From an uncultured Desulfohalobiaceae bacterium (GTDB taxonomy: Bacteria > Desulfobacterota > Desulfovibrionia > Desulfovibrionales > Desulfothermaceae): a stretch of DNA of 64,000 nt. The DNA lies in contig CAZNIP010000004.1 in assembly GCA_964573115.1 (NCBI GenBank), positions 1,190 through 65,189 of the forward strand. Direction: 5' to 3'. The notes under the pieces are model-generated. The model was not told where the DNA came from. It searched no databases and saw only the letters and a list, made by a program, of their open reading frames with translations. Position numbers and translations under genes: made by a program. Positions within the stretch are counted from its first letter, which is position 1; every line of letters begins with the position of its first letter. Shown here piece after piece: positions 46,412 through 62,700 of the stretch.

Positions 46412-46447
46412 GGGTTGTCCATGGGGCAGGCCAATGCCCCACAGGGG

Positions 46448-46960: not shown

Positions 46961-47172
46961 GGTTCAACTCTGGCCTCTCTGTACCTCATTTGCTCCCAGG
47001 CTGCAATGAGCCGGGGCTCTGGGTGCAGGCGGGGCCTTGCCACCTGAAATCTGAGTTCTTATTGTTACATCACCCTCGCCCGCTGGCAGGGCCACAACCT
47101 GACCTCAGATATTGAGTTCTGACCACCACGACGATCAATGCTGCCAGAGGCAGTTTCAACGAGGAGGTTCCC

Positions 47173-48003: not shown

Positions 48004-48042
48004 GCAACCAGGCCTCCGGGTTCAGCCCAGCCAGAGGCTGCA

Positions 48043-48221
48043 CTCGTCTGAAACTTCATGAGGAAGAACCCCTCAGGCCTTCGGCCGGCTCCCCGGACCC
48101 CTCAGGCCTTTGGCCAGCTCCCAAGAACCCCTCAGCCCTGCGAGCAGCTCCCCTTGGAAAAGGGGAGCAGTTAGGGGAGCAGTCAGAGGAGCAGCCTCGA
48201 AAGTTTCTGCCCTGATCCAAC
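48043..48221. repeat. mosaic intergenic repeat, copy 3 (module A + expanded module B with three ~29-nt sub-repeats)
   Basis: ctcgtctgaaacttc... then gaacccctcaggccttcggccggctcccc / ggacccctcaggcctttggccagctccc / aagaacccctcagccctgcgagcaGCTCCCCTtggaaaAGGGGAGC..., ending cctcgaaagtttctgccctgatccaac. Confidence 0.85.
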
Positions 48222-48267
48222 TGGTACAGTCAACAAACTCCTCTACACGGAAAAAATCTTTTCTTCC

Positions 48268-48323
48268 CTCAACCTTCAACCCTCAACCTTCAACCTGTCA
48301 GCCCGGCCTCTGGCCGGGCTGAC
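48268..48323. repeat. CCTCAACC-type short repeats + perfect 12-bp hairpin (GCCTCTGGC apex) abutting the CofD-like gene stop
   Basis: ctcaaccttcaaccctcaaccttcaacct followed by GTCAGCCCGGCC-tct-GGCCGGGCTGAC. Confidence 0.85.
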
Positions 48324-48324
48324 A

Positions 48325-49518
48325 TCAGACGCTCAGGGACAGCAGGATGTCTGCCAGCAGCCGGGGGTCGATACGCTCTGCTCCGCCCTCTGTCACCAGC
48401 CTGGTCTGCAGGATGTCGATTCCCCTTTCTTTGAGGAAATCAATGGGGATTCCTCCTGAATAGCGCTGCCCGTCTTGGTCCACGAGGATGAAGTTCAGGA
48501 CCCGACTGCAGTCCTCAGGGATGTAGTCACGCCCCAGAAGCTGGACCAGGAGCCGGTCCACCTGCATCTGGAGATCGAGCCCCATGCACTCCGGATCCTC
48601 GAAGGTGTTCGGGATGTAGATCTTGGGGCAGCTCGTTTCGGCCACAGCCCTGGCCACGCCTTCGGGCAGGAGGTTGGCCAGCAGGCTGGTGTAGAAGCTC
48701 CCCATGGGATAGCAGATCAGATCGGCAGACTGGATCTGGGCTTTGACCTTGTCCCGGATGGCCACCGGCATCGGGGCCGGTTCCTGCAGGCTCCTGACCA
48801 GGGTCATGCCCTTGATGGCCGACGTCAGGGCCGGCGACCCCTTCCCTGTCAGCAGATGCTGACCGACAACCCGCTGTCCGTCTGCCAGCTCTGCCGCCAG
48901 ATGGGCGTCCACATTGACCACCGGCCGGACCGTTCCCCTGACCTCCACCAGCTTGGAGTAGATGAAGATCACTGGATCGAGGTGGCGGTCGTTTTCCAGG
49001 TAGCCCGCGGTCAGGACCAGGTTGCCCAGGCTGGCCCCCCGAAGGTCAAAGTCTTCGGGCATGTTCCGAGCGAAGAAGTCGAGATGGTGCTTGATGATCT
49101 TGCGCATCGGGTCAGGGACATTGGCCACGTTGGGGTGCTGACCGCGGACAAAGGACTCGAATTCCCTCTTCAGAGCGGCCTGGTCGGCACGGTGCGGGAG
49201 CCGGTGGGAAAAGAGGGCATAAATCTCCGGGTGCCCTTTGACGGTCTGATCAGCCAGGGCCATGAGCCTGTTCCTGATGTCCCCCACTGCAGGCATGTTG
49301 AAGACCCTGCGAAGCTCGGCTGAGCTGCCGCCGGAGTCGAAGGGGGTGATGATGTGGATGGAGTTGTGCGTGGCGTTGATCAGGGTCCGGCTGAGGGCCC
49401 TCAGGGCTGTTCCCCCGCTGAAGAAGAGTATTCTGGGGCCCAGCTCCGGTGACTTCTGAAATCGGGCCAGTCTGATCCGGTCCGGGATGGTGATGTTCCT
49501 GGTCAAGCTGATGTGCAT
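48325..49518 (-). CDS. CofD/YvcK-family protein (GAK-system CofD-like)
   Basis: ILFFSGGTALRALSRTL...ITPFDSGGSSAELRRVF..PAVGDIRNRLMALA matches the CofD/YvcK GGGTG / DdGGSsG / GDiRN blocks. Confidence 0.85.
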   Translation of the reverse strand: MHISLTRNITIPDRIRLARFQKSPELGPRILFFSGGTALRALSRTLINATHNSIHIITPFDSGGSSAELRRVFNMPAVGDIRNRLMALADQTVKGHPEIYALFSHRLPHRADQAALKREFESFVRGQHPNVANVPDPMRKIIKHHLDFFARNMPEDFDLRGASLGNLVLTAGYLENDRHLDPVIFIYSKLVEVRGTVRPVVNVDAHLAAELADGQRVVGQHLLTGKGSPALTSAIKGMTLVRSLQEPAPMPVAIRDKVKAQIQSADLICYPMGSFYTSLLANLLPEGVARAVAETSCPKIYIPNTFEDPECMGLDLQMQVDRLLVQLLGRDYIPEDCSRVLNFILVDQDGQRYSGGIPIDFLKERGIDILQTRLVTEGGAERIDPRLLADILLSLSV

Positions 49519-49619
49519 GGCTCGGTTCGCTGTTGCAGCCTGTTCGTCAATGTCTCGTGCCCCAGGCGTCCCTGACGGGGGAACACACGGCCAGTGCCGC
49601 TCTCAAAGACCAGGCCCCT

Positions 49620-50702
49620 TCACCCCGGGACATGGCCTTCCCGGAGAAAGTGCAGGCACGCCCTGCGGGCATGGTCAAAGTCGACCCCCCCGACAGCCTC
49701 CATGACCACGCACCTGGACAGGACATCGAGGTAGGTCGCCTCTGAGAGGCTGGCTCCGTGACCCTCCTGAGGCAGGAAAAACAGGCCGACCTCTTTCATG
49801 AAGGCCGGCAGGAGGTCCTGGCGTGACCTGAGGTCGACCTCCTGAACACGCACCTGCTCGTTCCTGCGGGACCAGTTCAGGATGAGCAGGCCGTGCATCG
49901 GGGCCGTGAGCTCGAAACGCCCCTGGCCGAAGCAGGTTTCGATGGGCACGTCGTACTTGTGCTCCAGGTCCCAGAGCTGGTCTTCCTCCAGGGAGCTGAA
50001 TCTCTTCAGATCGTCCTCAGGCACGATGTCAACCAGGCAGGGGTTGTTCAGGGCCGTGCCCGGATTGATCCTGGGCAGCTTGGCCACTCCGCGCATGATC
50101 AGCCCGTCCCTGTGGGGACTGACCAGCAGCCTGTCGTTGCTGACAAAAACCGCGTCCTGCTCCAGGAGCTTCAGGGCCAGCGTGGACTTGCCCATGCCTG
50201 AAAAACCGGCCAGGGCCAGTCCCCTGCCCTTCAGGCTGACCCCGGCCGCATGGCCCAGGAGGGCCCCCTGGTGGAGCTGGTCCTGGATGAACCGGTTGTT
50301 GATGAAGTTCACGACCTGGTTGACATTGTTCAGACAGGGGCCCACACAGCAGTGATCAGACCCGCCAAAGACAAAGAGCATCCCGGTCAGGCGCTTGCGG
50401 ACCACCCGGCCGTCGCTCAGGTCGCAAAACTCCTCCTTGATTCTGCTCTTTCCGGGCTCGGGGGGCTTGACCCTGAACTCCAGCCCCAGGTCCGGTTCAG
50501 CTGCTTCATGACAGGTGATCAGGATGTCGGTCTCAGGCCCGGAGATGACAAAAGGACGGAAATAATCGGTCAGGGCCTGCAGCAGCTCTGGATGACTGGC
50601 CTGAACCTCGATCCTGCAGGAATCAAAGCCGAGCTTCAGCCCGGGACTCGTGGGGTGCTGCTGCCGGAGATGCTGGACAAGCTCCCGCCTGGTCACGGTC
50701 AT
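49620..50702 (-). CDS. HprK-related kinase (type B) P-loop protein
   Basis: MTVTRRELVQ... LALAGFSGMGKSTLALKLL has an HPr-kinase-like P-loop in the C-terminal half. ATG 50702 overlaps the ATP-grasp stop (ATGA). The long N-terminal extension in the track (to 51443) is rejected. Confidence 0.75.
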   Translation of the reverse strand: MTVTRRELVQHLRQQHPTSPGLKLGFDSCRIEVQASHPELLQALTDYFRPFVISGPETDILITCHEAAEPDLGLEFRVKPPEPGKSRIKEEFCDLSDGRVVRKRLTGMLFVFGGSDHCCVGPCLNNVNQVVNFINNRFIQDQLHQGALLGHAAGVSLKGRGLALAGFSGMGKSTLALKLLEQDAVFVSNDRLLVSPHRDGLIMRGVAKLPRINPGTALNNPCLVDIVPEDDLKRFSSLEEDQLWDLEHKYDVPIETCFGQGRFELTAPMHGLLILNWSRRNEQVRVQEVDLRSRQDLLPAFMKEVGLFFLPQEGHGASLSEATYLDVLSRCVVMEAVGGVDFDHARRACLHFLREGHVPG

Positions 50703-51568
50703 GCCTGTATCCTCTCGGCCACGTACTCCGTGAGCAGGGCTGCGGCGTTGATGTTCTGGGCTTCGAGCATGCCCCGGAACCCCCCAAAGGCCGAGACTTC
50801 GAAGACCACGGGCCCCTGCTCGGTTTCCACCAGGTCCACGCAGGTAAAATCGAGCCCGAACAGGGACTGGGCCTTTTCCGCCAGGCTGATGCTCTCGTCC
50901 GAGGGCGTAAAGGGTTCGTACTTGCCGCCGTTGGCCGTGGTCGTGTTCCAGGAGTGGCCCAGTTTCCTGGAGTAGGTTGTCAGATAGGACCCTCCCAGGA
51001 AGACCAGTCCCAGATCCCGGCCATTGAGATCGATCTTTTTCTGGATGTACATGATGGAATTGTGGCGATGGTAGTCCTGGACCTGTCGCTCGATGTCCGA
51101 ATCGGCGGAGATGAGCTTCATGCCCCTGGCCTTGGAGGTGTACAGGGGCTTGAACACGGCCTGGCCGTAATCCTGTACGGCCTTGATGGCCTGCGCGGAC
51201 TCTTCGGTGATCGTGGTCGGCGGCATGGGGATGCCGGCCAGCCTGAGGCTGATGGTGCAGCTCAGGCGGTCCAGGACGCGCATGATGTTCAGGGGGGAGG
51301 AGTAGACCTTGACCCCCTGTTCCTGGACAAAACGGAGCATCTCCAGTCTGTCCAGGAGATCGGGGGAATATCTGGCCCCGATCTTCTTGACGATCAGCCC
51401 GTCCAGCGTGCAGAGGTCGGTCTGTCCATGCCAGGCCCGGCATCTCTCGAGGTCCAGGCTGACATCCGCCATGTCCACGAGCAGACGGAAACCGGTCTTG
51501 TCCTGAACTGCATCAGCCAGGAATTCCGAAGACCATCCTCCGTGCGTGCCGACAACTCCAATTCTCAT
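50699..51568 (-). CDS. ATP-grasp (RimK-like) ligase
   Basis: 289 aa with MRIGVVG...GLIVKKIG...VFKPLYTSKARGMKLI...MYIQKKID...FTCVDLVETEQGPVVFEVSAFGGF. Confidence 0.85.
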   Translation of the reverse strand: MRIGVVGTHGGWSSEFLADAVQDKTGFRLLVDMADVSLDLERCRAWHGQTDLCTLDGLIVKKIGARYSPDLLDRLEMLRFVQEQGVKVYSSPLNIMRVLDRLSCTISLRLAGIPMPPTTITEESAQAIKAVQDYGQAVFKPLYTSKARGMKLISADSDIERQVQDYHRHNSIMYIQKKIDLNGRDLGLVFLGGSYLTTYSRKLGHSWNTTTANGGKYEPFTPSDESISLAEKAQSLFGLDFTCVDLVETEQGPVVFEVSAFGGFRGMLEAQNINAAALLTEYVAERIQA

Positions 51569-51637
51569 AGGTCGATCACCTCGTCATGATACGGTTTGAG
51601 CAGTGTTCCAGACTCGGCAGGTGTCCAGGACCTGCCA

Positions 51638-53293
51638 TCAGGAGCGCAGGATTCTGTCCGGGAAGGAGAATGCTGACCAGGGCCGGTCGCGATGGTTGAC
51701 GACCTTGTCCAGGAGGTAGTGGGCCCTGAGGAACATGTCTCTGGAAAAGCTGGAGTTCAGTTCGAAACGGGTGGAGGTGTACAGGGACCGGGCCACCGCC
51801 AGGGCCAGGCGGATATCGAAGAGGGTGTCGCCGCGATCTCCGGCATAGGACTTGGCAAAGAGAAACATGCGCTGGATCATCCAGTTCAGGCGGTCCCGCT
51901 TGTCTTTGGAAAAGATCGGGATGCGGTAGTTGGAGACCAGAAAGACTGAAATGTCCTGGACAAAATCAAAGGGCCTGGAGCGGTGGACGTCGATGAAGTG
52001 CACCTTTTGCCGGGTGTGGTTGTAGACGATGTTGTTGATGTTGAAATCGCCGTGGATCAGAACGGAAAACGGGGCCTGGACCTCGTCCTCCACCGCGGTG
52101 CAGAGGGTCATGAGCTCACGGGTGCTGTAAATCTGGTTTGAGCCGACCCTGGAGCTTCTGCGCTCAAAGCTGGGATGGACCTGCTTGACGGCGCCCAGAC
52201 GGCTGCTCAACTGCTGCATGAAGTTGGTCTGCACCGGTTCCGGCCTGGTGGTCGTGTCCCAGACTTCCTGAAGCGTCTCCTCCAGGATAAAGGCCGCATT
52301 GAGCAGGGTGTCCCAGTCCGTGGTCAGGACAGCCTCGTCCAGGGTGCACCCGGGCAGAAGCTCCACCAGCATGGAGGCCTGATCATCGGTTTCGTGCTCA
52401 AAGTAGTTGAAGATCTTGGGCACCAGGCCGGGGAAGGCCTCTTCCCAACGGATCAGGTTTTCCTTCTCCTCCTTGATCTTCTGCCTGCTGCCCTCCTTGA
52501 AGATGGAATCCTGGACCTGAAAGCGCTCCTTCTTGTCCTCGACACGGCCGATTCTGCAACCGGACCGGCTGCCCCAGATGAACTGGACATTGACATCTGA
52601 AAACGAGGATTGCATGTCCGGCTGATTCAAGGTCTGCTGCAGGGCCTGGAACTGATTGATCTTGATCTTCTCGCCCAGGATGGTGAACAGAATGGCTTCG
52701 CCGATGTTCAGCAGGCTGTCTCCGATCCGTTCCAGGTAGCGGACGATGAACAGGATGGTGATGTAGTTGCCTGGATCGGAACGCCCCTCCTTCAGCTCGG
52801 CCATGACCCGGTCGAAATGGGTCTTGTACATCTGGTCCAGATGGTTTTCAGCCCGGCAGATGGTCAGGGCCTTGGAGAGCTCCTTTTCCTTCAGGGCAGG
52901 GTCGATTTCCGCCAGGGTGTCCAGGATCTCCGTGAGCATGCCCTCATAGTTGAAGGAGTACAGGAACGAGGTGTCGGTCAGGTATTGCACCTGGCGGACG
53001 ATGTTCACGCAGAAGTCCGCGATCCGCTCCAGGTTGACGGCAATGGTCTGCATGGCCCGGATGTTGTTGACGTCCCTTTTGGACAGGCTGCCGTTGGTGG
53101 AGGAGATGATCTGTTCAAAGCAGGCGTTCTCCACCATGTTTCTCAGGTTGTCGACGGCGTCGTCCTTGGTGGTGATGGCTTGAAAGAGCTCAGGAGAGGG
53201 GTCGTTCAGGAAGTCGAAGGTGTTGGTGGCCAGGTTCTTGACCTCGATGAGCAGAAACTGAAAGTTGTCGTAGAGCGAGCCAAAGGTGAGCAT
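51638..53293 (-). CDS. two PhoU domains fused to an aminoglycoside-phosphotransferase/choline-kinase-like kinase domain
   Basis: The N-terminal ~220 aa hold PhoU repeats (LERIADFCVNIVRQV, LERIGDSLLNIGEAILF). The C-terminus has LIHGDFNINNIVYN...FIDVHRS, the HxDxxxxN catalytic loop and DxxxD-like Mg site. Confidence 0.75.
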   Translation of the reverse strand: MLTFGSLYDNFQFLLIEVKNLATNTFDFLNDPSPELFQAITTKDDAVDNLRNMVENACFEQIISSTNGSLSKRDVNNIRAMQTIAVNLERIADFCVNIVRQVQYLTDTSFLYSFNYEGMLTEILDTLAEIDPALKEKELSKALTICRAENHLDQMYKTHFDRVMAELKEGRSDPGNYITILFIVRYLERIGDSLLNIGEAILFTILGEKIKINQFQALQQTLNQPDMQSSFSDVNVQFIWGSRSGCRIGRVEDKKERFQVQDSIFKEGSRQKIKEEKENLIRWEEAFPGLVPKIFNYFEHETDDQASMLVELLPGCTLDEAVLTTDWDTLLNAAFILEETLQEVWDTTTRPEPVQTNFMQQLSSRLGAVKQVHPSFERRSSRVGSNQIYSTRELMTLCTAVEDEVQAPFSVLIHGDFNINNIVYNHTRQKVHFIDVHRSRPFDFVQDISVFLVSNYRIPIFSKDKRDRLNWMIQRMFLFAKSYAGDRGDTLFDIRLALAVARSLYTSTRFELNSSFSRDMFLRAHYLLDKVVNHRDRPWSAFSFPDRILRS

Positions 53294-53302
53294 GAGCCAG
53301 CC

Positions 53303-53575
53303 TCAGGACTTGATGGTCAGGGGTTGATTCGCGGTCCCGGTCTGAGTCTGCTTGTCCTCCCAGACGATCTTCAGCTGCAGTTTGCTGCTCCCGTCCTTCT
53401 TCTTGGCTTTGATGGACAAAGTGAATAAATCTGGAGGGTTGAGGGTGAACTCCTCCTGAGAGGATCCCAGGACGATCCGCCCGTTTTCCAGCCCTTTCTG
53501 CAGAGTCTCCAGAAAGGACTTGATGGACTGGACATCCTGCATGGATTCATGAAAAAACTTGCCGTCACTGGCCAT
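53303..53575 (-). CDS. amphi-Trp-domain small protein
   Basis: 90 aa: ...SIKSFLETLQKGLENGRIVLGS...LSIKAKKKDGSSKLQLKIVWEDK. It matches my recollection of the amphi-Trp domain, an amphipathic segment ending in a conserved Trp. Confidence 0.65.
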   Translation of the reverse strand: MASDGKFFHESMQDVQSIKSFLETLQKGLENGRIVLGSSQEEFTLNPPDLFTLSIKAKKKDGSSKLQLKIVWEDKQTQTGTANQPLTIKS

Positions 53576-53715
53576 AGACTCTTTCCTTGTTGTCAGAGCA
53601 GAAGGCGGAGTTCAAAGCGCGGTCGCGCCTTCTAGTCAAGGACCGACGCCGGAGAAAAAGGATCGCTTGGCAACAGCGACGACATGGTGATCAATGGCCA
53701 ATTCCAGGACGATGA

Positions 53716-54882
53716 TCAGCCCTGCAGGCGGCTCAGGTATTCGTCAATGGTCCCTGCCCGGCTGACATGAGCCTTGATGAGCATTTTCTGGATGGACAGG
53801 TCGTCCCAGGCCGGCTGGAGCCCGATTTCCCGCGAAGCCTTGTCCAGGTCCTGCAGCTCAGGGTCCTTGACCTTTTCCCCCATGTGGGTGTCATCGCCCA
53901 TGAAGATCAAGAGCCGTCTCTTGGACAGCCCCAGTTCCCGGTTCTTGCGATTGACCACAGAAATCAGGAAATCGGTGTAGCGCTGGGACTGGGGGTTCCA
54001 GACTTCATAGCCGTCCACGTCGTATTCCGCCAGCAAAATAGGCCAGAACTGCTCCGGATGGGGGACAATGATCCCGGCCTGATGCTTGCGTGCCTCCTCG
54101 ATGATCTCTGATGTCCGGTAGAAGTACTGCAGGGAAAAGTTGGCCTTCACAGTCTGCTTGACCGTCTTCAAAAAGGCCTGGGCCCGGTCGATGACCTGAT
54201 GGCCGAACTGTGGCCGCAACCCGTCGAAGAAGTTGCGCAGCAGCTTGTTCTTGATCATGTCCTCGGGCACGGAGTCCAGGTGCTCGTCCAGGAGCTTCTT
54301 GATCTTGCGGACCGTGATCTGGATGAAGGTGACCAGGTCCTGGTCAGCGCCCGTCTCCCGGGCGGCATACTCCAGTCTGCCCTGCTTCGGGGCGGCGATG
54401 GTCTCGATGAAGTCGAAGAGCTGGGAGGCGCGATACTTCCTGGTGTGTTCGAGCATGGAGAGCAGGATGCCGGCGTCCTGGAGATTGGCCTGGTCGAAAT
54501 GGAGAAGCAGCTGGACCTTCTGGTCAAAGGCCCTGGAATAGCAGTCGACCTCAACGCCGCAGTATCCGTTCCAGTTCAGGAGCACATTGTGCTGAGTGGG
54601 AATGATCAGCTCCCTGTCCAGGCCTGGAAACATGGCGTGGGTCCTGGACAGGCAGAGTTCCAGGGGAACGAACTCGGGATGCCAGTGAACAGCCAGGATC
54701 TCCCTCTGCCGCGGATAGGTCAGTTCGGGGTTGCTGATCCGGTCGGTCTGCTCCTGGCTGAGCTCGATGTTCACGAGCTGAAAAAACAGGCGCCGATCCT
54801 CGTCCGTCGGCTCCTCAGGGATGGACCGGTCAAAGAGTGAGGGGCATTGAGGCTGGTTCTTCAGGACCATGACCATGAGCAA
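53716..54882 (-). CDS. 388-aa hypothetical protein (possible PHP-like C-terminal region)
   Basis: A long ORF with genome-typical codon bias inside the cluster. It carries AVHWHPEFVP, IIVPHPEQFW...GYEVWNPQS...FMGDDTHMGE. I cannot name a family with confidence. Confidence 0.6.
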   Translation of the reverse strand: MLMVMVLKNQPQCPSLFDRSIPEEPTDEDRRLFFQLVNIELSQEQTDRISNPELTYPRQREILAVHWHPEFVPLELCLSRTHAMFPGLDRELIIPTQHNVLLNWNGYCGVEVDCYSRAFDQKVQLLLHFDQANLQDAGILLSMLEHTRKYRASQLFDFIETIAAPKQGRLEYAARETGADQDLVTFIQITVRKIKKLLDEHLDSVPEDMIKNKLLRNFFDGLRPQFGHQVIDRAQAFLKTVKQTVKANFSLQYFYRTSEIIEEARKHQAGIIVPHPEQFWPILLAEYDVDGYEVWNPQSQRYTDFLISVVNRKNRELGLSKRRLLIFMGDDTHMGEKVKDPELQDLDKASREIGLQPAWDDLSIQKMLIKAHVSRAGTIDEYLSRLQG

Positions 54883-54900
54883 AACCTCGACTTCGTCCGG

Positions 54901-55425
54901 TCACTTGTAGGTGTCATGACATCGGCTTTTGAGGGTGTTCAGGGTGTTGACGCACTCCTTCAGCCGGGGCAGGTCCTCCTGTCCGTAGGCCTGTTCAAAG
55001 GCCTGACAGGCCTGCTGATACTCCTCGTAGTACTCGTCACCATACCCTGGATAGCTGATCATGCTTTCGGAGTCCTGGAGGAACACGGACACGATCTCCC
55101 GTGAGGGCATCTGGTTGTCGTTCACGCTCTTCAAGAGGTCGACGAAGTAGACTTCCATGCGCTTTTTGAGCTTGGAGTACTTCTCTTCCTCGAGATCGTC
55201 ATCGGGTTCCACATTCTCGGAACTGACGAACTTGATCTTCAGCTTGACGTTCATGAGGTCAGAAAATTTCTTCAAGCTCATCTTGAGCTTTGAAAAGTCT
55301 GACAAGTCGATATCATAGTCCTCGATCCTGGTCTGCCCATTTTCCACGCAATCGGCCACCGAGCGGAGAAAATGCGCTGCCTGATCCTTGCTCATGCTCA
55401 TTTCATATCGTTTCTTTTCGCTCAT
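54901..55425 (-). CDS. XXXCH-domain protein with an N-terminal amphi-Trp-like module
   Basis: 174 aa, acidic, with the C-terminus ...TLNTLKSRCHDTYK (xxxCH). Its N-terminal 70 aa align with the 53303-53575 protein. Confidence 0.7.
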   Translation of the reverse strand: MSEKKRYEMSMSKDQAAHFLRSVADCVENGQTRIEDYDIDLSDFSKLKMSLKKFSDLMNVKLKIKFVSSENVEPDDDLEEEKYSKLKKRMEVYFVDLLKSVNDNQMPSREIVSVFLQDSESMISYPGYGDEYYEEYQQACQAFEQAYGQEDLPRLKECVNTLNTLKSRCHDTYK

Positions 55426-55531
55426 AGGACCCCCATGGTCTCAAGTCGATTGTCAAACATCTGGTCACGTGTGAGCATTCGTTTCCATGACCTCCTTACA
55501 GGACTCACCTGGGCTTAGCAAGGGGTGAGGC

Positions 55532-56218
55532 TCACTCCTCTTCCTGGGAGCAGCGGTCATCGAACTGATTGGAATGTTTGACATTGATGCCTTTGACGAT
55601 AAAAAAGACATACTCAGCGATGTTCGTTGACAGGTCCCCCACCCGCTCCAGGGAGTTGGCCACGATGATCGTGTGCACGGCCCGCTCGACAATGATGGAC
55701 TCATTGGTCATGTAGTCGATGAGGCTCTTGATGATGGTCACGTTGAGCTCGTCCGCCTTTGAATCCAGGCAGCAGACCTCCCTGGCCATGTCGCAGTCCA
55801 GTTCTGACAGGGCGGTCATGGACTTGCGGAACATGTCCCCGACCACATTGGACAGATCCTCGATGCTGTTCATCAGGTTCAGGCGGGCCTTGCGGTTGAG
55901 CATGACCGCCCGTTCAGCCACATTGGTCGCCTGGTCGCCGATGCGCTCCAGTTCATTGGCGATTTTGGTGCACCCGGAGATGAACCGCAGATCCCTGGCC
56001 ACGGGCTGCCATCTGGCCAGGACATTCAGGATGTCCTCTTCGATATCGACTTCAATCTGATTGATGATTTTGTCCTCCTGGAGGACCTGGTCGGCCAGCT
56101 CGTCGTCCCGGTCGATCAGGGCACGGATGGCCTTGTCCAGGGCCCGCTCAGTCAGGGCGTACATCTTCAGCAGCTTGACCTTCAGGTTTTCCAATTCGAG
56201 GTGCAGATGTGTTTCCAT
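55532..56218 (-). CDS. phoU: phosphate signalling complex protein PhoU
   Basis: METHLHLELENLKVKLLKMYALTERALDKAIRAL..., with two PhoU repeats (ELERIGDQATNVAE, SLERVGDLSTNIAE). ATG 56218 is preferred over the track start at 56251. Confidence 0.85.
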   Translation of the reverse strand: METHLHLELENLKVKLLKMYALTERALDKAIRALIDRDDELADQVLQEDKIINQIEVDIEEDILNVLARWQPVARDLRFISGCTKIANELERIGDQATNVAERAVMLNRKARLNLMNSIEDLSNVVGDMFRKSMTALSELDCDMAREVCCLDSKADELNVTIIKSLIDYMTNESIIVERAVHTIIVANSLERVGDLSTNIAEYVFFIVKGINVKHSNQFDDRCSQEEE

Positions 56219-56348
56219 AAACCTTCCATCTCCTTGTCCATACAATATCATGACATTCTGGCCTCAGGCACCATGGTAAAACGATTCACCATTAGTACGA
56301 TTCCAGTTTCCAAAAGGCAAGCTGCCCTGCCGGTGGCCGGCCACCCGC

Positions 56349-58091
56349 TCAGCTCGGGACGGCCTTTTTGAGCTGTATGAAGAAAATCGATCCCTGCAGG
56401 GAACCAGGCACCGGGCTGTCGACCCAGATGCGTCCGTTCTGATTCCTGACGATGTGCTTGCAGATGGAAAGCCCGAGACCCGTTCCAGGGACATGGTTTC
56501 CATAGCCTTCCGTGCCGATGCGGTAAAAGCGTTCAAAGATCCGTTCCCTGAGCGAAAATGGAATGCCGGGACCTTCATCCTGAATGGCGATGACCCAGTC
56601 AGACCCCTTGTCCTGAACCGACACCTGGACTCGGCCTTTGATGGGTCCGTACTTGACGGCATTGTCCAGGATGTTGACCAGGACCCGCACCAGCTGCTCA
56701 AAATCTGAGAGAAGAACCACATCCTGGTCCGGCAGATTGCTGACCAGGGCCACCTGCCTGGCGTCCGCCTGCGGTCCGCATATTTCCCAGGCGGTGTTCA
56801 ACACGGAGCTCAAGTGGACAGGTTCCAGGCCCGGTTTTGATTCCATGGCCTCGAGCCTGGCCAGCTGCAGGAGATCTTCCAGGAGCTGGTTCATGGTGTT
56901 GGCGTTCTTCTGAATGACTTCCACAAAGGCTTTGGTGGTCTCCGGGTCAGGCACCGGGCTGGACAGCAGAGTTTCGGCATATCCCTTGATCGAGGTCAGC
57001 GGGGTTCGCAGTTCATGGGAGACATTGGCCACAAAGTCCTTTCTGACCTGCTCCAGCTTTTTGAGCTCAGACACGTCGTGAAAAACCAGGATCAGGCTCA
57101 GCGGCTGCTCCTCCCCGGATTGGAGTGGAATGATGCTGACATCGAAATAGCGGGCCCCGGGCATGGACACAAAGAGGTGGTGGGCCACCTGATCCCTGCT
57201 CTGCAGACAGTGCGTGATGGCATCGCCCAGATCGGCACTGTGGAGAAACTCGATGGGATTGCGCCCCTGAACGTTTTGGCTCAGACCGAAGATCTGTTTG
57301 ATGGCCTGATTGGCGATTTTGACCTTTCCCCGATCGTCAAGGACCAGGACTCCTTCCTGCATCCCGTTGAGAATGGTCTCCAGATGATCCCTCTGCTGGG
57401 CAATGGTTTGGATGTTGTTCTGAATCCTCTTGGCCAGGCGGTTGATGCTCTGGACCAGGGGGATGAAATCCCGTCCAGGGTAGGTCTGGATCCGCTTGTG
57501 GAAATTGCCGTGTCCGATCTCGTCCGCAGCCTGGCTGATGGCCGCAATCTCGCGGCTGTAGCTGCTCCCCAGCAGCCAGCTGATGACCCCGGCCAGAGCG
57601 ATCACGCCTGCGACCAAGAGGCCGTTCAGGGGCGTGAGGACATACCGGGATCCCGGTATGTCGGGGAATGTCTTGGTGATCTTCAGGGTTCCGGGTTCGA
57701 CCCCGGGGATGTCCCTGACCAGGACTGTTGCGGTGCAGCCAAGACCCCGGCCGTCCGGGTCTGGCATGCACTGCGCCAGTGCCTTTGTCTGCAGATCTGC
57801 CCCTGCTGCTTGAAGAGGTGTTGCTTCCGGGCTCCGGGCCTGAACATAGATGATCGTGGCCCCCAGGCTCTGCCCTTGGTCGTTGAGCCAGACTTCAAAT
57901 CCTTCCAGGGACGTGAAGTCCCCCCTTTTCTGAGCCAGCCGGTGGACGTGGCTCAGGATCTCAGCCGTTGATTTCGAGAACCTCTGCTCATCCTGATCCT
58001 GGAGGACCCGAATCGAGTTCAGCAGGATCACAACGACCAAGAGCAGGCTCAGGCCGATCATGGCCAGAAAAAAGGACTTCTTGAGGCTCAT
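56349..58091 (-). CDS. phoR: PhoR-like sensor histidine kinase (TM-HAMP-PAS-HisKA-HATPase)
   Basis: Carries the H-box FVANVSHELRTPLTSIKGY, an N-box NILDNAVKY and the G-boxes QDEGPGIP and GTGLGLSI. It sits between phoB-like and phoU. Confidence 0.8.
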   Translation of the reverse strand: MSLKKSFFLAMIGLSLLLVVVILLNSIRVLQDQDEQRFSKSTAEILSHVHRLAQKRGDFTSLEGFEVWLNDQGQSLGATIIYVQARSPEATPLQAAGADLQTKALAQCMPDPDGRGLGCTATVLVRDIPGVEPGTLKITKTFPDIPGSRYVLTPLNGLLVAGVIALAGVISWLLGSSYSREIAAISQAADEIGHGNFHKRIQTYPGRDFIPLVQSINRLAKRIQNNIQTIAQQRDHLETILNGMQEGVLVLDDRGKVKIANQAIKQIFGLSQNVQGRNPIEFLHSADLGDAITHCLQSRDQVAHHLFVSMPGARYFDVSIIPLQSGEEQPLSLILVFHDVSELKKLEQVRKDFVANVSHELRTPLTSIKGYAETLLSSPVPDPETTKAFVEVIQKNANTMNQLLEDLLQLARLEAMESKPGLEPVHLSSVLNTAWEICGPQADARQVALVSNLPDQDVVLLSDFEQLVRVLVNILDNAVKYGPIKGRVQVSVQDKGSDWVIAIQDEGPGIPFSLRERIFERFYRIGTEGYGNHVPGTGLGLSICKHIVRNQNGRIWVDSPVPGSLQGSIFFIQLKKAVPS

Positions 58092-58140
58092 AGGGGAGGC
58101 CTTCCGGGCGCTGGGTGAAACACCAGGAGGAGCACAGCGA

Positions 58141-58827
58141 TCAGGTGGCCTTGAGGCGATAGCCGATGCCGCGGACGGTATGAATCCAGTCAGCGTAGGG
58201 GCCCAGCTTTTGCCGGAGACGATGCATGTGGGTGTCCACGGTCCTGGCGTAGCCCATGAACTCGTAGCCCCAGACCTTGTCCAGCAGGTGCTCCCGACTG
58301 AGGACCCGGCCGTTGGCCCTGATCAGGGCAGCCAGCAGATTGAACTCCGTGGCTGTCAGGTCGGCTTCGGCCTCGTCGACCATGACTCGAAAAGCGCCAA
58401 AATCGACGCGAAGCCCGCTGTGTTCCCAGATATCCTCTTCCTTGAGGGGGGTCTTGGTCCGGCGGAGCACGGCCTTGACGCGCAGAATGAGCTCCCTGGG
58501 GCTGAAGGGCTTGACCACATAGTCGTCGATGCCCAGCTCGAAGCCCGAAATCCGGTCCTCCTCCTCTCCCTTGGCCGTGAGCATGATCACTGGAATGTCC
58601 CTGGTTTCGGGCTTCGACTTCAAAACCTTGCAGACTTCGATACCGTCCATGCCGGGGAGCATGATGTCCAGGAGGAGGACATCCGGAACCTGCCGCTCGA
58701 TGAGCGCCAGGGCGTGTTCGCCATCCTTTGCCGTCCAGGCCTCGTATCCCTCGCTTTGAAAATTGTACCTCAGCAGATTGAGGATATCCGCTTCGTCTTC
58801 AACAATGAGAATGGTCAAGGTGTCCAT
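58141..58827 (-). CDS. phoB: PhoB-like OmpR-family response regulator
   Basis: ILIVEDEADIL...DVLLLDIMLPGMDG...IMLTAKGEEEDR, plus a winged-helix C-terminus (…VDTHMHRLRQKL…RGIGYRL). Confidence 0.85.
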   Translation of the reverse strand: MDTLTILIVEDEADILNLLRYNFQSEGYEAWTAKDGEHALALIERQVPDVLLLDIMLPGMDGIEVCKVLKSKPETRDIPVIMLTAKGEEEDRISGFELGIDDYVVKPFSPRELILRVKAVLRRTKTPLKEEDIWEHSGLRVDFGAFRVMVDEAEADLTATEFNLLAALIRANGRVLSREHLLDKVWGYEFMGYARTVDTHMHRLRQKLGPYADWIHTVRGIGYRLKAT

Positions 58828-58859
58828 TGATCAGCATCCCGTTCCTGGCCTGCTTGACA

Positions 58860-59618
58860 TCAACCGAACCGACCGGTGATGTAGTCTTCAGTCTGCTTTT
58901 TGGAAGGCCGGGTGAAGATGGTTTCGGTCGTATCGACCTCAATGAGCTCTCCCATGTAGAAAAAGGCCGTGTAGTCCGAGACACGGGCGGCCTGCTGCAT
59001 GTTATGGGTGACGATGATGATCGTGTAGAGCTTCTTGAGCTCGAAGATGAGCTCCTCAATCCGCTGAGTGGCAATGGGATCAAGGGCTGAGGCCGGTTCG
59101 TCCATGAGCAGGACATCCGGCTCCACAGCCAGGGCCCTGGCGATGCACAGGCGCTGCTGCTGACCGCCTGACAGTCCCAGGGCCGAGCTCTCCAGCCTGT
59201 CTTTGACCTCCTCGAACAGGGCTGCCTGTTTCAGCCCCTCCTCGACTCGATCGGCAATTTCGTTCTTGTTGTACCTGTTGATCCTCAGGCCATAGGCCAC
59301 GTTTTCATAAATGGATTTGGGAAAGGGGTTGGGCTTTTGAAAGACCATGCCCACCTGGCGGCGCAGGGTGACCACATCGACCTTGGGGTCATTGATGTTC
59401 TCGTTGTCCAGGAGAATGCGCCCTTCGACCCTGGCCACCGGAATGAGGTCGTTCATACGGTTCAGGCAGCGCAGAAAGGTCGACTTGCCGCATCCGGAAG
59501 GCCCGATCAGGGCTGTGACTTCGTTTTTGCGGAACTGGATGTTGATGTCCTTGAGGGCATTGAAGTCACCATAGAAGAAATTCAATGCTTCGGAAGCCAT
59601 TTTCATTGAAGCGTCCAT
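58860..59618 (-). CDS. pstB: phosphate ABC transporter ATP-binding protein PstB
   Basis: Carries [34 protein letters not shown] and [12 protein letters not shown], with the PstB-typical C-terminus [18 protein letters not shown]. Confidence 0.95.
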
Positions 59619-59676
59619 GACCGTGTTCTATCCTTTGGTGCGGTTGTCGTTTGTCTCTGTCCGGGTCTTCAAGCCA

Positions 59677-60528
59677 TCAGCGCCGCTTTTGCATTCTGGA
59701 CCGGATGATGATGGCCAGCAGGTTCATGCCCACGACCAGGGCCATCAAAACCAGAGCCGTGCCGTACTGCAGGTGCCTGGTGGCCTCGATGTTCGTTCCG
59801 GCAGTGGCCAGAACATAGATGTGATACGGCAGGGCCATGACATCGTCGAAGATGGAGGTCGGCAGCTGCCTGGTATAGTACACGGCTGCCGTGAACATGA
59901 TCGGGGCGGTCTCCCCGGCAGCCCTGCTCAAACCGAGGATGAGCCCGGTGAGCATGTTCGGCAGCGCGGCCGGCAGGACCACCTTGTAGATGGTCTGCCA
60001 TTTCGTGGCCCCCAGGGCAAGAGAGGCCTCCCGATAAGTCTGGGGGATGGCCCGCAGGGACTCCTCAGCCGTGCCGATGATCAGCGGGAGGATGAAAGCT
60101 CCCAGGGTCAGAGCCCCGGAAACGATGCTCACGCCAAGCTTGAGCCAGGTCACGAAAAAGGCCAGCCCGAAGAGGCCGTAGACCACCGACGGGACGCCGG
60201 CCAGATTGTTGATCCCCAGCCTGATGATGCGCAGCCAGGGACCTGGCCTGGCGTACTCGTTGAGATAGATGGCCGTGGCCACTCCAAGGGGAAAGGCCAC
60301 GGTGATCGATCCCAGGCTGAGGTAGACGGTCCCCATGATGCAGGGCAGGATGCCTCCTTCAGTCATGGCCTCCCTGGGAGGCTGGGAGAGGAAGGTCCAG
60401 TTGATGGCCCCGATGCCCTGGACGGCGATGAACAGCAGAAAAATGAACAGCGCCACGACATTGATGTAGATGGCCAGCCTGATGACTGAGAAGGCGATGA
60501 ATTGGCTGCGTTTTCTCGACTCTTGCAC
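59677..60528 (-). CDS. pstA: phosphate ABC transporter permease PstA
   Basis: 283 aa and polytopic. The EAA-type loop reads EASLALGATKWQTIYKVVLPAA. It is the second permease in pstSCAB order. Confidence 0.9.
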   Translation of the reverse strand: MQESRKRSQFIAFSVIRLAIYINVVALFIFLLFIAVQGIGAINWTFLSQPPREAMTEGGILPCIMGTVYLSLGSITVAFPLGVATAIYLNEYARPGPWLRIIRLGINNLAGVPSVVYGLFGLAFFVTWLKLGVSIVSGALTLGAFILPLIIGTAEESLRAIPQTYREASLALGATKWQTIYKVVLPAALPNMLTGLILGLSRAAGETAPIMFTAAVYYTRQLPTSIFDDVMALPYHIYVLATAGTNIEATRHLQYGTALVLMALVVGMNLLAIIIRSRMQKRR

Positions 60529-60570
60529 AACGTCCTCGACTGTTCAGATCTGAGTTGACACGATGGAATT

Positions 60571-61464
60571 CTAAAGCGTCGCGGCTCCGACCTGCTTGTG
60601 CTTGTGGGCCAGGTGGTCGGCGATGAGATTGAAAATAAAGGTGAAGACGAACAGGACCAGACCGATGCCGAACAGGGAGTGATAGTGGTTGCTCCGGAAT
60701 GGGGCTTCGGCCATTTCCGCGGCAATGGAGGCCGGCATGGGTCTGACCGGATCAAAGATCGATTCAGGGATCATGGCCGCTCCTCCGGCGACCATGAGCA
60801 CGACCATGGTCTCCCCGATGGCCCGGGCAATGCCCAGGATGACTGCGGTGGATATGCCGGACAGCGAGGCCGGCAGGATGACCCGATAGATGGTCTCCCA
60901 CTGTGTGGCCCCCAGGGCCATGGAGGCTTCCCTCATTTCCCCGGGAACGCTGTAAATCGCGTCTTCGGACACACTGGTGATGGTGGGCACGGCCATGAAG
61001 GCCAGCATCAGGGACGCGTTGAACATGTTCAGGCCAGTGGCGATGCCCAGGAGGTCCTGCAGCAGCGGGGCCACGACAACCATGCCGAAGAACCCGATGA
61101 CCACGGTGGGCAGGCCTTCAATGAGCTCGATGATCGGCTTGACCACGGCCCTGACCCGGGGATTGGCGATCTCGGCCAGGTAGATCGCGCTCCCGATGCC
61201 CAGTGGGATGGCGATCAGGGACGACAGGGCGGTCACGGCCATGGAGCCGACGATCAAGGGGAGGATCCCGAAGTCCGGCGGGTCATAGGTCGGATACCAG
61301 AGCGTGCCGAAGAGAAAATCGGTCACCGAGACCTTGGTGAAGATGGGCACCCCTTCCAGAAAGAGAAAGAGCAGAATCAAGGCCAGGATGATGATTCCGC
61401 TCGCTCCGACGATAAAGAAGAAAGAATGGATGCCACGTTCTTTGATTTGACTTGGCGCAGCCAT
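60571..61464 (-). CDS. pstC: phosphate ABC transporter permease PstC
   Basis: 297 aa with EASMALGATQWETIYRVILPAS. It is the first permease after pstS. Confidence 0.9.
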   Translation of the reverse strand: MAAPSQIKERGIHSFFFIVGASGIIILALILLFLFLEGVPIFTKVSVTDFLFGTLWYPTYDPPDFGILPLIVGSMAVTALSSLIAIPLGIGSAIYLAEIANPRVRAVVKPIIELIEGLPTVVIGFFGMVVVAPLLQDLLGIATGLNMFNASLMLAFMAVPTITSVSEDAIYSVPGEMREASMALGATQWETIYRVILPASLSGISTAVILGIARAIGETMVVLMVAGGAAMIPESIFDPVRPMPASIAAEMAEAPFRSNHYHSLFGIGLVLFVFTFIFNLIADHLAHKHKQVGAATL

Positions 61465-61538
61465 AAGGTCCCCGTCTGCGGTTCGTGATGAGAAAAAGAG
61501 AGGTGGTCAGGAGTCCCGTCTGTTCGGGCCGGAAAAGG

Positions 61539-61567
61539 GGGAGGACCTGAAGGGATCAAGTCCTCCC
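61539..61567 (-). terminator. intra-operon hairpin after pstS (attenuator candidate)
   Basis: The minus strand reads GGGAGGAC-ttgatcccttcag-GTCCTCCC followed by CCTTTTCC. Confidence 0.5.
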
Positions 61568-61588
61568 GCTGAGCAGTCTCGTGCGTGT

Positions 61589-62404
61589 TTAGTACAGGGA
61601 GACGTAGCCGACTTCATCCACGAAGGGCTGACCCTTGTCCGGGTGCAGCACATAGTTGATGAACAGCTTGGTCTCGCCGGTCGGCCAGCCGTCGGTGAAC
61701 ATGTACAGGGTCCTGGAAACAGGGTACTCGCCGGAGGAGGTGGTGGCCTTGGTGCCCAGCACCCCATTAACAGAGACGTTCTTGAGGTCCTTGTTCAGGT
61801 AGCCGATCCCGATGTAGCCGATGGCGTTCTTGTTCTTGGCCACGGCCTGAGCCACTGCGCCGTTGGAGGCCAGGAGCTGAGCCCTGGGGGTGACCCTGGC
61901 GCCTTCGAGGACGATGTCTTCCCAGACTTCATAGGTTCCGGAGGAGGTGTCCCTGGAGATGACCACGATGGGCCGGTCAGGCCCGCCGACGTCCTGCCAG
62001 TTTTCAACCTCGCCCTCGTAGATGGCCTTGAGTTGGCCATGAGAGAGGTCAGACACGGAGTTGCTGGGGTGGACCACAGGGATGATGCTGTCCAGGGCCA
62101 CACCAAAGGGGACCGGGTAGTGACCGTTGTCCACGGCCCGCTTGACTTCCTTGTCCTTGATGAACCTGGAGGCGTCGGCAATGTCCGTGGTCCCGTCGAT
62201 CAGGGCCTTGATCCCGTTCCCGGAACCGCCGCCGGAGATGGACACGTCGATGTCAGGGTACTGATCCATGAACTTTTCAGCCACTTTCTGGGCAATGGGC
62301 AGGACCGTTGTTGAACCTTTGATCACCACTGAACCGGCGAGCACCGGAGCAGCGCAGAGACTCAGACCAACAAAGACAACCAGTGCTGCTAAACTCCTTC
62401 GCAT
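61589..62404 (-). CDS. pstS: phosphate-binding protein PstS (PBP-like, PhoT family)
   Basis: Signal peptide, then GSTTVLPIAQKVAEKF...SGGGSGNGIKALIDGTTDIA...SRDTSSGT. Confidence 0.9.
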   Translation of the reverse strand: MRRSLAALVVFVGLSLCAAPVLAGSVVIKGSTTVLPIAQKVAEKFMDQYPDIDVSISGGGSGNGIKALIDGTTDIADASRFIKDKEVKRAVDNGHYPVPFGVALDSIIPVVHPSNSVSDLSHGQLKAIYEGEVENWQDVGGPDRPIVVISRDTSSGTYEVWEDIVLEGARVTPRAQLLASNGAVAQAVAKNKNAIGYIGIGYLNKDLKNVSVNGVLGTKATTSSGEYPVSRTLYMFTDGWPTGETKLFINYVLHPDKGQPFVDEVGYVSLY

Positions 62405-62469
62405 AGTGTACCTCCTTCAAAGTTGGTAAAAAAAGTGAAACCTACCGCTTGAAAAGAAGTACGTGCGCT

Positions 62470-62511
62470 CTGTCACGATCCTATGACCCTTTTGTTACAA
62501 TTCTGTGACAC
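62470..62511. promoter_or_regulatory. Pho-box array upstream of pstS (four half-sites in 11-bp phase)
   Basis: The + strand reads CTGTCAC gatc CTATGAC cctt TTGTTAC aatt CTGTGAC, starting at 62470, 62481, 62492 and 62503. The core GTnAC is quasi-palindromic, so the minus strand also reads GTGTCAC/TTGTAAC/GGGTCAT/TCGTGAC in phase. The array lies 66-107 nt upstream of the pstS ATG. Confidence 0.6.
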
Positions 62512-62700
62512 ATTCCAGGATTTGAAAACATCTGGGATTTTTTTGTCTTCAGCAGGACCTCATTGACGCTTTGAAAAATTGCCCTTTTGAGTCCATGCCT
62601 GTGGTGTGTGAGCTGTCGGCCCTTTTGAGACGTGTGGCCGGTGGGCAGCTCTTGTGGGTCTGACGGTGAGGTTGAGAGAAGTATGACGATCAGGTGACGG

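Follow-up and report, generated by a model that had tools for sequence, protein, structure and literature searches.

A GAK gene cassette behind pstSCAB-phoU: recurrent linkage to phosphate genes and phased Pho-box arrays points to a conserved Pho regulon member

In the pstSCAB-phoU/PhoBR system, of which Escherichia coli provides the paradigm and the pnpRS-pst genes of Streptococcus another version, a Pho-box array replaces the −35 element, the transporter genes stand in the order pstSCAB and phoU ends them, PhoU being the domain that links PstB and PhoR signalling. The GAK system, a name that we take to stand for ATP-Grasp, Amphi-Trp and Kinase, is annotated in NCBIfam with five components (TIGR04354 to TIGR04358) and uncharacterised; literature searches found no published regulation or function of it and no GAK-Pho link, and the paper on phosphate limitation in D. 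alaskensis G20 makes no mention of HPr, CofD, RimK, ATP-grasp or LPPG. Here we describe a stretch of 64,000 nucleotides ("the window") from an uncultured Desulfohalobiaceae bacterium (contig CAZNIP010000004.1), in which seven consecutive minus-strand GAK genes (55425-48325) follow behind phoU.

The pst part of the window is an ordinary Pho operon. As in the paradigm, a Pho-box array stands in place of the −35 element, the genes follow the order pstSCAB, pstS is followed by a hairpin and phoU closes the transporter genes; the differences are a phoB-phoR-like pair placed between pstB and phoU and the seven extra same-strand genes after phoU. These encode an XXXCH-domain protein, a 386-residue protein with a predicted PHP-type phosphoesterase fold, an amphi-Trp protein, a PhoU-PhoU-kinase fusion, an ATP-grasp ligase, an HprK-related kinase B and a CofD-like protein. 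All five GAK models exceed their curated cutoffs within this one cassette, which is a bona fide member of the GAK system. On the sequence evidence we give a probability of about 0.72 to the reading that the GAK cassette is a conserved member of the PhoB (Pho) regulon, with a phosphate-gated modification cycle as the best explanation of its gene content; the cassette is very probably switched on by phosphate starvation.

Linkage of GAK cassettes to phosphate genes and Pho boxes

For the genome survey the HprK-related kinase B alignment was scanned against one genome per species and the best 80 of 468 relatives were taken with 10-kb flanks; locus contents were assigned by phmmer of the window proteins against the six-frame open reading frames (ORFs) of each locus. 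Adjacency was counted in the 60 genome loci with at least 3 kb upstream, about 5 kb being available, and compared with the downstream side of the 53 loci with at least 3 kb of flank, typically about 8.8 kb. A pstS, pstC, pstA or phoU gene was found within about 5 kb upstream in 13 of the 60 loci (same strand in 10, opposite strand in 3), whereas none was found downstream in the 53 (Fisher p = 1.6e-4 for upstream versus downstream; binomial p < 1e-9 against a generous 1-2% background). The first-pass annotation of the window had set such a survey beforehand as a refutation test of its proposal that the GAK genes belong to the phosphate-starvation response, and the proposal came through it. Metagenome loci with at least 3 kb upstream carried pst or phoU genes there in 5 of 29 cases; in two further metagenome loci (L100 and L106) phoU abuts the XXXCH gene, and in one a divergent pstS lies 24 bp away.

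The junctions differ by lineage. The orders pstSCAB-phoU-XXXCH, pstCAB-phoU-phoB-XXXCH, phoB-pstB-phoU-XXXCH and pstCAB-phoU-LMWPc-(EAL)-XXXCH were all observed, together with phoRB divergent from pstSCA and then the PHP gene, and with pst operons on the opposite strand. phoU stands directly upstream on the same strand in L017, L034, L074, L081, L100 and L106; in L004 phoB lies between phoU and XXXCH. The closest relative, L081, in which the 386-residue protein is 84% identical, has the order pstB-phoU-XXXCH with a 63-bp pstB-phoU spacer and no phoB-phoR there. Since L081 keeps the phoU-XXXCH junction without this pair, phoBR appears as the variable part and phoU-GAK as the stable junction, and the comparison points to a recent insertion or loss of the pair inside the operon.

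Pho boxes were searched with a simple pattern, the unit T[ACG]A[CT]A repeated at an 11-bp period, which was derived from pstS promoters only (those of the window, L017, L034, L050 and L063). A position weight matrix trained on matches upstream of GAK genes was dropped as circular; the pstS-derived pattern was kept and was controlled by changing the spacing and by shuffling. Across 66 loci, with 550 bp taken around the first gene of the cassette, two units with a spacer of 6 gave 30 forward matches in 21 loci, as compared to 0-5 matches for every other spacing from 0 to 15 and to 1.7 ± 1.25 matches (maximum 6) in 200 local-composition shuffles. The match density was 0.99 per kb ahead of cassettes and 0.087 per kb over 1.34 Mb of locus sequence. 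Longer arrays, defined as three units with at least 14/15 core matches or four units with at least 17/20, were present at period 11 in 23 of the 66 loci and at periods 8-10 and 12-14 in 0-2 loci. A metagenome replicate, for which contigs were scanned with the PHP protein to yield 68 loci non-redundant with the genome set, gave the same picture: 20 of the 48 loci with at least 300 bp upstream had an array at period 11, compared to 2-4 at periods 9, 10, 12 and 13.

Boxes were found in Thermodesulfobacteriota, Nitrospinota, Ignavibacteria, Zixibacteria and Spirochaetia. Cassettes that have a box and no nearby pst genes include those of Maridesulfovibrio, Desulfatirhabdium, Desulforapulum, Nitrospinaceae, Ignavibacteria, Zixibacteria and Spirochaetia. 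The pattern also marks pstS promoters and phoB/pstS divergent promoter regions inside the loci. Its frequency matrix, (C/G)TAACA-AAAT-CTAACA, is by its sequence that of a classical Pho box. Both the window array and the cassette pattern fall into the GTNAC-N6-GTNAC class of the Desulfovibrio vulgaris PhoB site AGGTTACAGCATAGTTAC, which was validated by electrophoretic mobility shift assay (EMSA) (PMC6456213). Overall, pst adjacency, a box or both were present in 32 of the 60 genome loci. Cassettes that lie directly behind phoU, the window included, are mostly without a box of their own; this fits cassettes riding on the pst promoter, the contrast with the other cassettes being suggestive and not significant. 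Because adjacency to pst and phoU recurs and the arrays are phased at 11 bp, the GAK cassette would be a conserved Pho-regulon module, and the proposed role in the phosphate-starvation response gains further support from the conserved PhoU-kinase with its intact motifs.

The gene array in the window and its spacers

The 14 genes that run in one direction from the Pho boxes to the CofD-like stop, as annotated before, were recovered both in the ORF list and by the family scans (Table 1). pstS, pstC, pstA, pstB and phoU each score above the curated NCBIfam cutoff, in that order and on one strand. The pair between pstB and phoU matches PhoB and PnpS/PhoR best in the family profiles, yet remains under the equivalog cutoffs; we call these genes phoB/phoR-like, from best match plus context. 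The earlier count of three PhoU domains had to be corrected, as Pfam finds two repeats in phoU and two in the kinase fusion, that is, four repeats in two modules. The public gene call for phoU in L083, which has an identical 386-residue gene, is a 228-residue product, with which the start would be at 56218. A 607-residue ORF at 49620-51443 is a chimera; its N-terminal 246 residues are an out-of-frame, low-complexity stretch rich in Pro, Gly, Arg and His. Because this spurious ORF covers the ATP-grasp gene, the latter is missed by plain ORF lists. The HprK-related kinase B truly starts with the ATG at 50702, in an ATGA overlap with the ATP-grasp stop.

Table 1. Features of the pst-pho-GAK array (window coordinates, except in the last row)
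Feature	Position	Strand	Evidence
Pho-box array, four 11-bp-phased units	62470-62511	-	about 66 nt upstream of the pstS ATG
pstS, phosphate-binding protein	61589-62404	-	TIGR02136 269.3 bits (cutoff 206.6)
Post-pstS hairpin, attenuator-like, followed by CCUUUUCC	61539-61567	-	12-bp stem in minimum-energy and centroid folds
pstC, permease	60571-61464	-	TIGR02138 296.8 bits (cutoff 196.45)
pstA, permease	59677-60528	-	TIGR00974 288.3 bits (cutoff 193.45)
pstB, ATPase	58860-59618	-	TIGR00972 409.9 bits (cutoff 343.2)
phoB-like, OmpR-family response regulator	58141-58827	-	best NCBIfam match TIGR02154 PhoB, 262 bits (cutoff 296.2)
phoR/pnpS-like, PAS histidine kinase	56349-58091	-	PnpS 358 (cutoff 400); phoR_proteo TIGR02966 259 (cutoff 334.2)
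Structured phoR-phoU spacer	56310-56348	-	GC palindrome 56329-56348 (inverted repeat I8) and weak terminator-like stem at about 56310-56328
phoU, two PhoU repeats	55532-56251	-	TIGR02135 187.6 bits (cutoff 130.25); PF01895 twice
GAK XXXCH-domain protein	54901-55425	-	TIGR04358 106 bits (cutoff 40)
386-residue core GAK protein, predicted PHP-type phosphoesterase	53716-54876	-	fold search and invariant residues
amphi-Trp small protein, 90 residues	53303-53575	-	TIGR04354 67 bits (cutoff 31)
PhoU-PhoU-kinase fusion, 551 residues	51638-53293	-	PF01895 twice, 85 bits; EcKL 37.6 bits
GAK ATP-grasp ligase, 289 residues	50699-51568	-	TIGR04356 443 bits (cutoff 300)
HprK-related kinase B	49620-50702	-	TIGR04355 497 bits (cutoff 200)
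GAK CofD-like protein	48325-49518	-	TIGR04357 535 bits (cutoff 340)
Hairpin right after the CofD-like stop	48296-48324	-	inverted repeat I3, 13-bp perfect GC-rich stem, 3-nt loop
PF01451 gene in other loci	L009 3223-3663; L010 3697-4167; L023 4072-4497; L039 5442-5873; L047 4370-4801		

The Pho-box array ahead of pstS, already proposed in the first-pass annotation, can be read directly as four units, TGTCAC-N5-TGTAAC-N5-GGTCAT-N5-CGTGAC from 62511 to 62470, and the three overlapping matches with first bases at 62471, 62482 and 62493 are the only ones to the two-unit pattern in the whole 64 kb. The hairpin after pstS is likewise real, but the claim that it is the sole clear hairpin of the array did not hold: the phoR-phoU spacer is structured (fold z-score −2.56), and the hairpin right after the CofD-like stop is stronger, being 100% complementary, the strongest inverted repeat within 48200-62600, with a fold z-score of −3.5. 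From its sequence this last hairpin likely marks the end of the transcription unit. The terminator scan gave no match at the phoR-phoU stem. A weak hairpin with a T-run was seen at 53662-53680 in the 140-bp spacer before the amphi-Trp gene, and Rfam returned no RNA family within 47000-63000.

The 106-bp spacer between phoU and XXXCH, for which the absence of a strong terminator had been noted, proved clean by both approaches: two pattern scans found no terminator-like or promoter-like site inside it, and its fold z-score of +0.6 indicates no more structure than in shuffles. It is not conserved with respect to the same spacer of L081. A Pho box or promoter of its own was sought in this spacer and rejected; there is only a near miss, TGACC-N7-TGACA, which contains TTGACA and has no usable −10. 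A sigma-70-like match at 55339-55312 begins just inside XXXCH, the regional count of such matches being at chance (4 found, 4.0 expected). The sigma-54 scan gave fewer matches than chance and none in any intergenic spacer. Because it has no Pho box of its own and is joined to the 3' end of the pst-pho genes, the window cassette most likely uses the pstS promoter. The GAK genes would then be transcribed under phosphate starvation, by PhoB, from the Pho-box promoter ahead of pstS; attenuation after pstS, and possibly after phoR, would modulate read-through, and transcription would end at the strong hairpin after the CofD-like gene.

Cassette proteins and proposed mechanism

In most of the 80 loci the genes stand in the order XXXCH, PHP, amphi-Trp, PhoU-kinase, ATP-grasp, HprK-B and CofD-like, and nearly every one of these genome cassettes includes the PhoU-kinase. 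Based on this conserved order and presence, we regard the PhoU-kinase and the PHP protein as core members; the five components named by the NCBIfam GAK set are thus joined by two more. The 80 loci span Thermodesulfobacteriota, Zixibacteria, Ignavibacteria, SAR324, Nitrospinota, Gemmatimonadota, Spirochaetia, Myxococcota and Planctomycetota. Cultured species with a GAK cassette include Maridesulfovibrio hydrothermalis, Pseudodesulfovibrio mercurii ND132, Desulfonema ishimotonii and Desulforapulum autotrophicum. The cassette enzymes are 50-65% identical across phyla, and each core protein is represented by about 1,600 sequence clusters in a collection of 5.8 billion proteins.

The 386-residue protein has no match in Pfam or NCBIfam, and a sequence search of the PDB returned insignificant matches to PDE5 (E 0.2). 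All names among the 120 listed of its 1589 homologues are 'hypothetical protein' or 'Uncharacterized protein'. Its alignment shows invariant H64-x-H66, H96, E109, D111, H126, H273 and D328-D329-x-H331. The AlphaFold (AF2) model, with a mean predicted local distance difference test score (pLDDT) of 88, matched PHP-fold structures in Foldseek with a probability of 1.00, namely BAD_1165 (3e0f/3o0f, E 1.4e-5), RNase AM (9etk, E 7e-5) and the pAp phosphatase Cv1693 (2yb1). Because the best fold matches belong to the PHP family and the His, Asp and Glu residues are invariant, the protein is predicted, at fold level only, to be a PHP-type metal-dependent phosphoesterase with a helical insert. It resembles the PHP phosphoesterases TrpH/YciV RNase AM, Cv1693 and BAD_1165 in the predicted fold and in the HxH/H/E/H/H/DxH metal-ligand pattern; unlike them, it shows no sequence-level family match and carries a helical insert of about 120 residues, and its TM-scores (target length) to PHP structures are 0.47-0.56 at 13-16% identity.

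The kinase part of the PhoU fusion has an APH/EcKL-type fold, and the PhoU part is matched by PhoU structures of the PDB. Across 72 orthologues, conservation is at least 90% for the ExxxD residues in each repeat as well as for HGDxNxxN and ID in the kinase. The second kinase, HprK-related kinase B, has the Walker-A sequence GFSGMGKST, in which F, the second and third G, K, S and T are invariant and the first S is conserved in at least 90%. The founding HprK/P phosphorylates a protein of about 88 residues on Ser with ATP or pyrophosphate, and phosphorolysis reverses this, inorganic phosphate being the substrate of the reverse reaction. The GAK kinase is like the HprK/P-HPr switch in being a P-loop kinase of the HprK C-terminal family encoded beside a protein of about 90 residues with a Ser conserved in at least 80%. 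It differs in that it reaches only 28 bits against bona fide HprK (TIGR00679, cutoff 240), having the P-loop region alone in common, and in that the amphi-Trp protein has no HPr family match in Pfam or NCBIfam; the amphi-Trp-like domain of XXXCH is modelled as beta-alpha-beta-beta.

The ATP-grasp ligase belongs to the RimK family, as do the RimK-S6, LysX-LysW and MptN ligases. Against MptN it reaches 139 bits and against LysX 100 bits, but it remains under the cutoffs of RimK, LysX and MptN. The CofD-like protein shares the PF01933 fold (136 bits) with CofD (2-phospho-L-lactate transferase; LPPG:Fo) and YvcK/GlmR. It is a superfamily member only, not a CofD equivalog, with its own GAK-specific family, and reaches 121 bits to TIGR01826, under the cutoff of 196. 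Its sequence matches in the PDB (2ppv, 2o2z, 2hzb, 2p0y and 2q7x) are structural-genomics entries deposited as uncharacterized or UPF0052, which we take to be YvcK-type proteins. By sequence it lies closer to the YvcK/GlmR branch than to CofD, the YvcK/GlmR branch being that of a UDP-sugar-binding regulator rather than an enzyme.

Amphi-Trp-domain proteins account for two of the seven cassette genes, the amphi-Trp gene itself and XXXCH. In the amphi-Trp protein F7, S11, Q13-D14 and W72 (the latter in a 'KIVWE' stretch) are conserved in at least 80% of sequences, and the protein is a candidate substrate or carrier. An acidic C-terminal tail of the LysW/RimK type was looked for and ruled out. 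For Dissulfuribacter thermophilus under hydrogenotrophic sulfite conditions, the list of the 20 most abundant proteins includes DITHS69_2464, which has an amphi-Trp domain (PMC13490349). The AF2 model of XXXCH (mean pLDDT 91) consists of the N-terminal amphi-Trp-like domain and a C-terminal four-helix bundle, of which the top Foldseek matches are cytochrome c'/b562 (E 0.05-0.3, TM-score by target length 0.5-0.62); in the alignment, C169-H170 is invariant, and it closes the final helix, the place where class II cytochromes c have CxxCH. XXXCH is like them in the four-helix bundle with Cys-His at that position and unlike them in that the first Cys is missing and no signal peptide is seen by eye in the translation; of the two features looked for, CxxCH and an export signal, only the Cys-His is conserved. 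Since the first Cys is missing and no signal peptide was seen, covalent heme attachment by the periplasmic machinery is unlikely, and the cytochrome-c'-like shape of the modelled bundle is a weak lead, not an assignment.

We propose a modification cycle, gated by phosphate, in which the cassette would act on the small proteins with an amphi-Trp domain or on a ligand carried by them. The PhoU-fused kinase and the HprK/P-family kinase would be the writers and the PHP phosphoesterase the eraser; the ATP-grasp ligase and the CofD/YvcK-like protein might add, bind or sense a further group, and the cytochrome-c'-like XXXCH bundle may be a sensor or adaptor. This scheme is favoured because the gene content is mostly phosphoryl chemistry and includes two small amphi-Trp-domain proteins. 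The first-pass annotation had suggested phosphate storage or mobilisation, or the modification of a signalling protein, as possible roles; nothing found points to storage, and a protein or ligand phospho-modification fits the content better. A phosphate-gated switch that acts specifically on the amphi-Trp proteins is put forward tentatively and with a low probability. The fuller proposal, that GAK is an unrecognised branch of phosphate signalling, a Pho-induced phospho-switch written by two kinases and erased by the PHP enzyme on amphi-Trp, is speculative and by itself rather unlikely. In such a switch, the CofD/YvcK-like protein, the ATP-grasp ligase and a heme-type XXXCH sensor could integrate the metabolic or redox state, the output might feed back on Pst/PhoR or on phosphorus-sparing metabolism, and the circuit would operate in sulfate reducers and in several other, mostly anaerobic, phyla.

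Several observations weigh against a Pho-regulated modification cycle. In 28 of the 60 genome loci there is no pst adjacency and no box that passes the strict threshold, although many of them have near-miss arrays. As the loci are phylogenetically non-independent and the cassette probably spreads horizontally, the counts overstate the number of independent events. In the window, the structured phoR-phoU spacer could stop part of the read-through, and an internal promoter invisible to consensus scans is possible. Some observations would fit an incidental adjacency, in which the GAK genes have a phosphate-independent promoter and the pst-pho transcript ends before XXXCH: the phoR-phoU spacer has its weak terminator-like stem, the spacer before the amphi-Trp gene its weak hairpin with T-run, and about half of the other loci have neither pst genes nor a strict-threshold box. 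However, the phoU-XXXCH spacer is devoid of terminator, structure and conserved element, the sole nearby promoter-like match belongs to a class found at chance count, phoU lies directly upstream in several other lineages, and stand-alone cassettes bear Pho boxes instead; we consider incidental adjacency quite improbable. In principle, a different member of the OmpR family might bind the 11-bp-phased repeats, the cassette then answering a different signal with a merely Pho-like architecture, as OmpR/PhoB-family regulators generally bind direct repeats phased at 10-11 bp and an unassigned OmpR-type regulator adjoins the cassette in L013 and L044. Yet the pattern was built on pstS promoters alone, re-finds pstS and phoB/pstS divergent promoters and agrees with the EMSA-validated D. 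vulgaris site, and the physical linkage to pstSCAB-phoU independently indicates the same signal, which leaves another regulator very improbable.

As to function, the mechanism is inferred from domain content, the Foldseek E values of XXXCH are weak, and a CofD-like protein together with an ATP-grasp ligase also fits small-molecule chemistry. The main alternative to a phospho-modification cycle is that the cassette serves to produce or modify a cofactor or other small molecule, by chemistry like that of F420 or the methanopterin tail and tuned to the phosphate supply, with the amphi-Trp proteins as carriers (as LysW) or regulators and not as signalling targets. The MptN and LysX scores of the ligase, the PF01933 match to CofD, the small-molecule APH/EcKL/choline-kinase type of the kinase fold and the action of PHP enzymes such as 2yb1 on nucleotides are in line with it. 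The cassette lacks, however, CofC, CofE, CofG, CofH and any nucleotidyl-transferase, its CofD-like protein is nearer the YvcK/GlmR branch, the C-terminus of amphi-Trp is not an acidic tail of the LysW/S6 type, and two of the seven genes encode amphi-Trp-domain proteins, so that this alternative, too, appears doubtful. A peptide-maturation island resembling those for ribosomally synthesised and post-translationally modified peptides (RiPPs), or a defence-type accessory island, phosphate-regulated by chance, would agree with the frequent phosphate regulation of secondary-metabolite clusters, with the occurrence of ATP-grasp ligases and HprK-like kinases in peptide-modification cassettes, with the presence of small ORFs and with weak matches to ATP-grasp ribosomal peptide maturases (23-25 bits) and ScmC (13.5 bits, E 0.034). 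It is extremely improbable given that the small proteins are conserved and not hypervariable, that the enzymes keep their high identity across phyla, that no protease, exporter or immunity gene was found in the loci and that PADLOC gave 0 matches for all seven proteins.

Judged by the literature that could be searched, it is new that GAK is recurrently coupled to the Pho regulon, both physically and in its regulation, as is the place of the PhoU-kinase and the PHP phosphoesterase among the core members, which raises the GAK component list to seven; the cytochrome-c'-like shape modelled for the XXXCH domain would also be new, as a weak lead. Placement in the Pho regulon gives a first concrete condition, phosphate limitation, under which a GAK phenotype, transcript or modified substrate can be sought. 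If the switch model is true, environmentally important sulfate reducers would possess a post-translational circuit of a new type that responds to phosphate, and GAK would be one of the rare instances in which a PhoU module is coupled directly to a kinase.

Variation among cassettes and neighbouring genes

Two loci from metagenome-assembled genomes, L032 (Ignavibacteria) and L033 (Zixibacteria), carry nearly identical four-unit arrays, TTAACA.AAAACTAACAA.ACGCTAACATA, about 140-170 bp before XXXCH, and their cassette scores are also nearly identical. This similarity of arrays and scores suggests that the cassette and its control region recently moved together by horizontal transfer. Repeatedly, a low-molecular-weight phosphatase/ArsC-like gene (PF01451; Table 1) either lies between phoU and XXXCH or stands first behind the Pho box in place of XXXCH; its product could be a protein phosphatase that belongs to the system, or else an arsenate reductase tied to Pst-mediated arsenate uptake. 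A second amphi-Trp gene with a weak match (22-36 bits) often stands right after the CofD-like gene (L006 12497, L014 12275 and L026 12310). The window has no such second gene; there, the terminator hairpin lies directly 3' of the CofD-like gene.

Besides pst, the two nearest upstream ORFs were enriched in family-4 glycosyltransferases (GT4; 7/118), GGDEF (6) and EAL (5). In other bacteria starved of phosphate, GT4 enzymes produce glycolipids that contain no phosphorus, and the GT4 neighbours may represent a further Pho-related neighbourhood. In the Maridesulfovibrio/Desulfovibrio loci L006, L011, L021, L026, L029 and L045, another CofD-like paralogue (230-297 bits) and a histidine kinase similar to phoR are encoded on the opposite strand, some 8-9 kb downstream of the cassette, and in L006 an HD-domain gene lies directly upstream of XXXCH.

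Downstream of the cassette, the window (43881-48003) shares synteny with L081 (9354-13539). The shared genes are a rhodanese (+, 47173-48003), a 164-residue ORF (47559-47065) called PNPOx_N in L081, a class II photolyase (46411-45041) and a response-regulator-TPR protein (44954-43881). A link of the cassette to the photolyase and the PNPOx-like gene, with F420/deazaflavin in mind, was ruled out, as the synteny occurs in the closest relative only and the photolyase in 0 of the 80 loci. The spacer between the convergent CofD-like and rhodanese genes (48064-48296) is full of short tandem repeats, namely a 29-bp unit present three times (48064-48152), a 12-bp unit present 2.8 times (48161-48194) and a 7/14-bp unit (TCAACCT) present four times at 48266-48296, adjoining the terminator hairpin.

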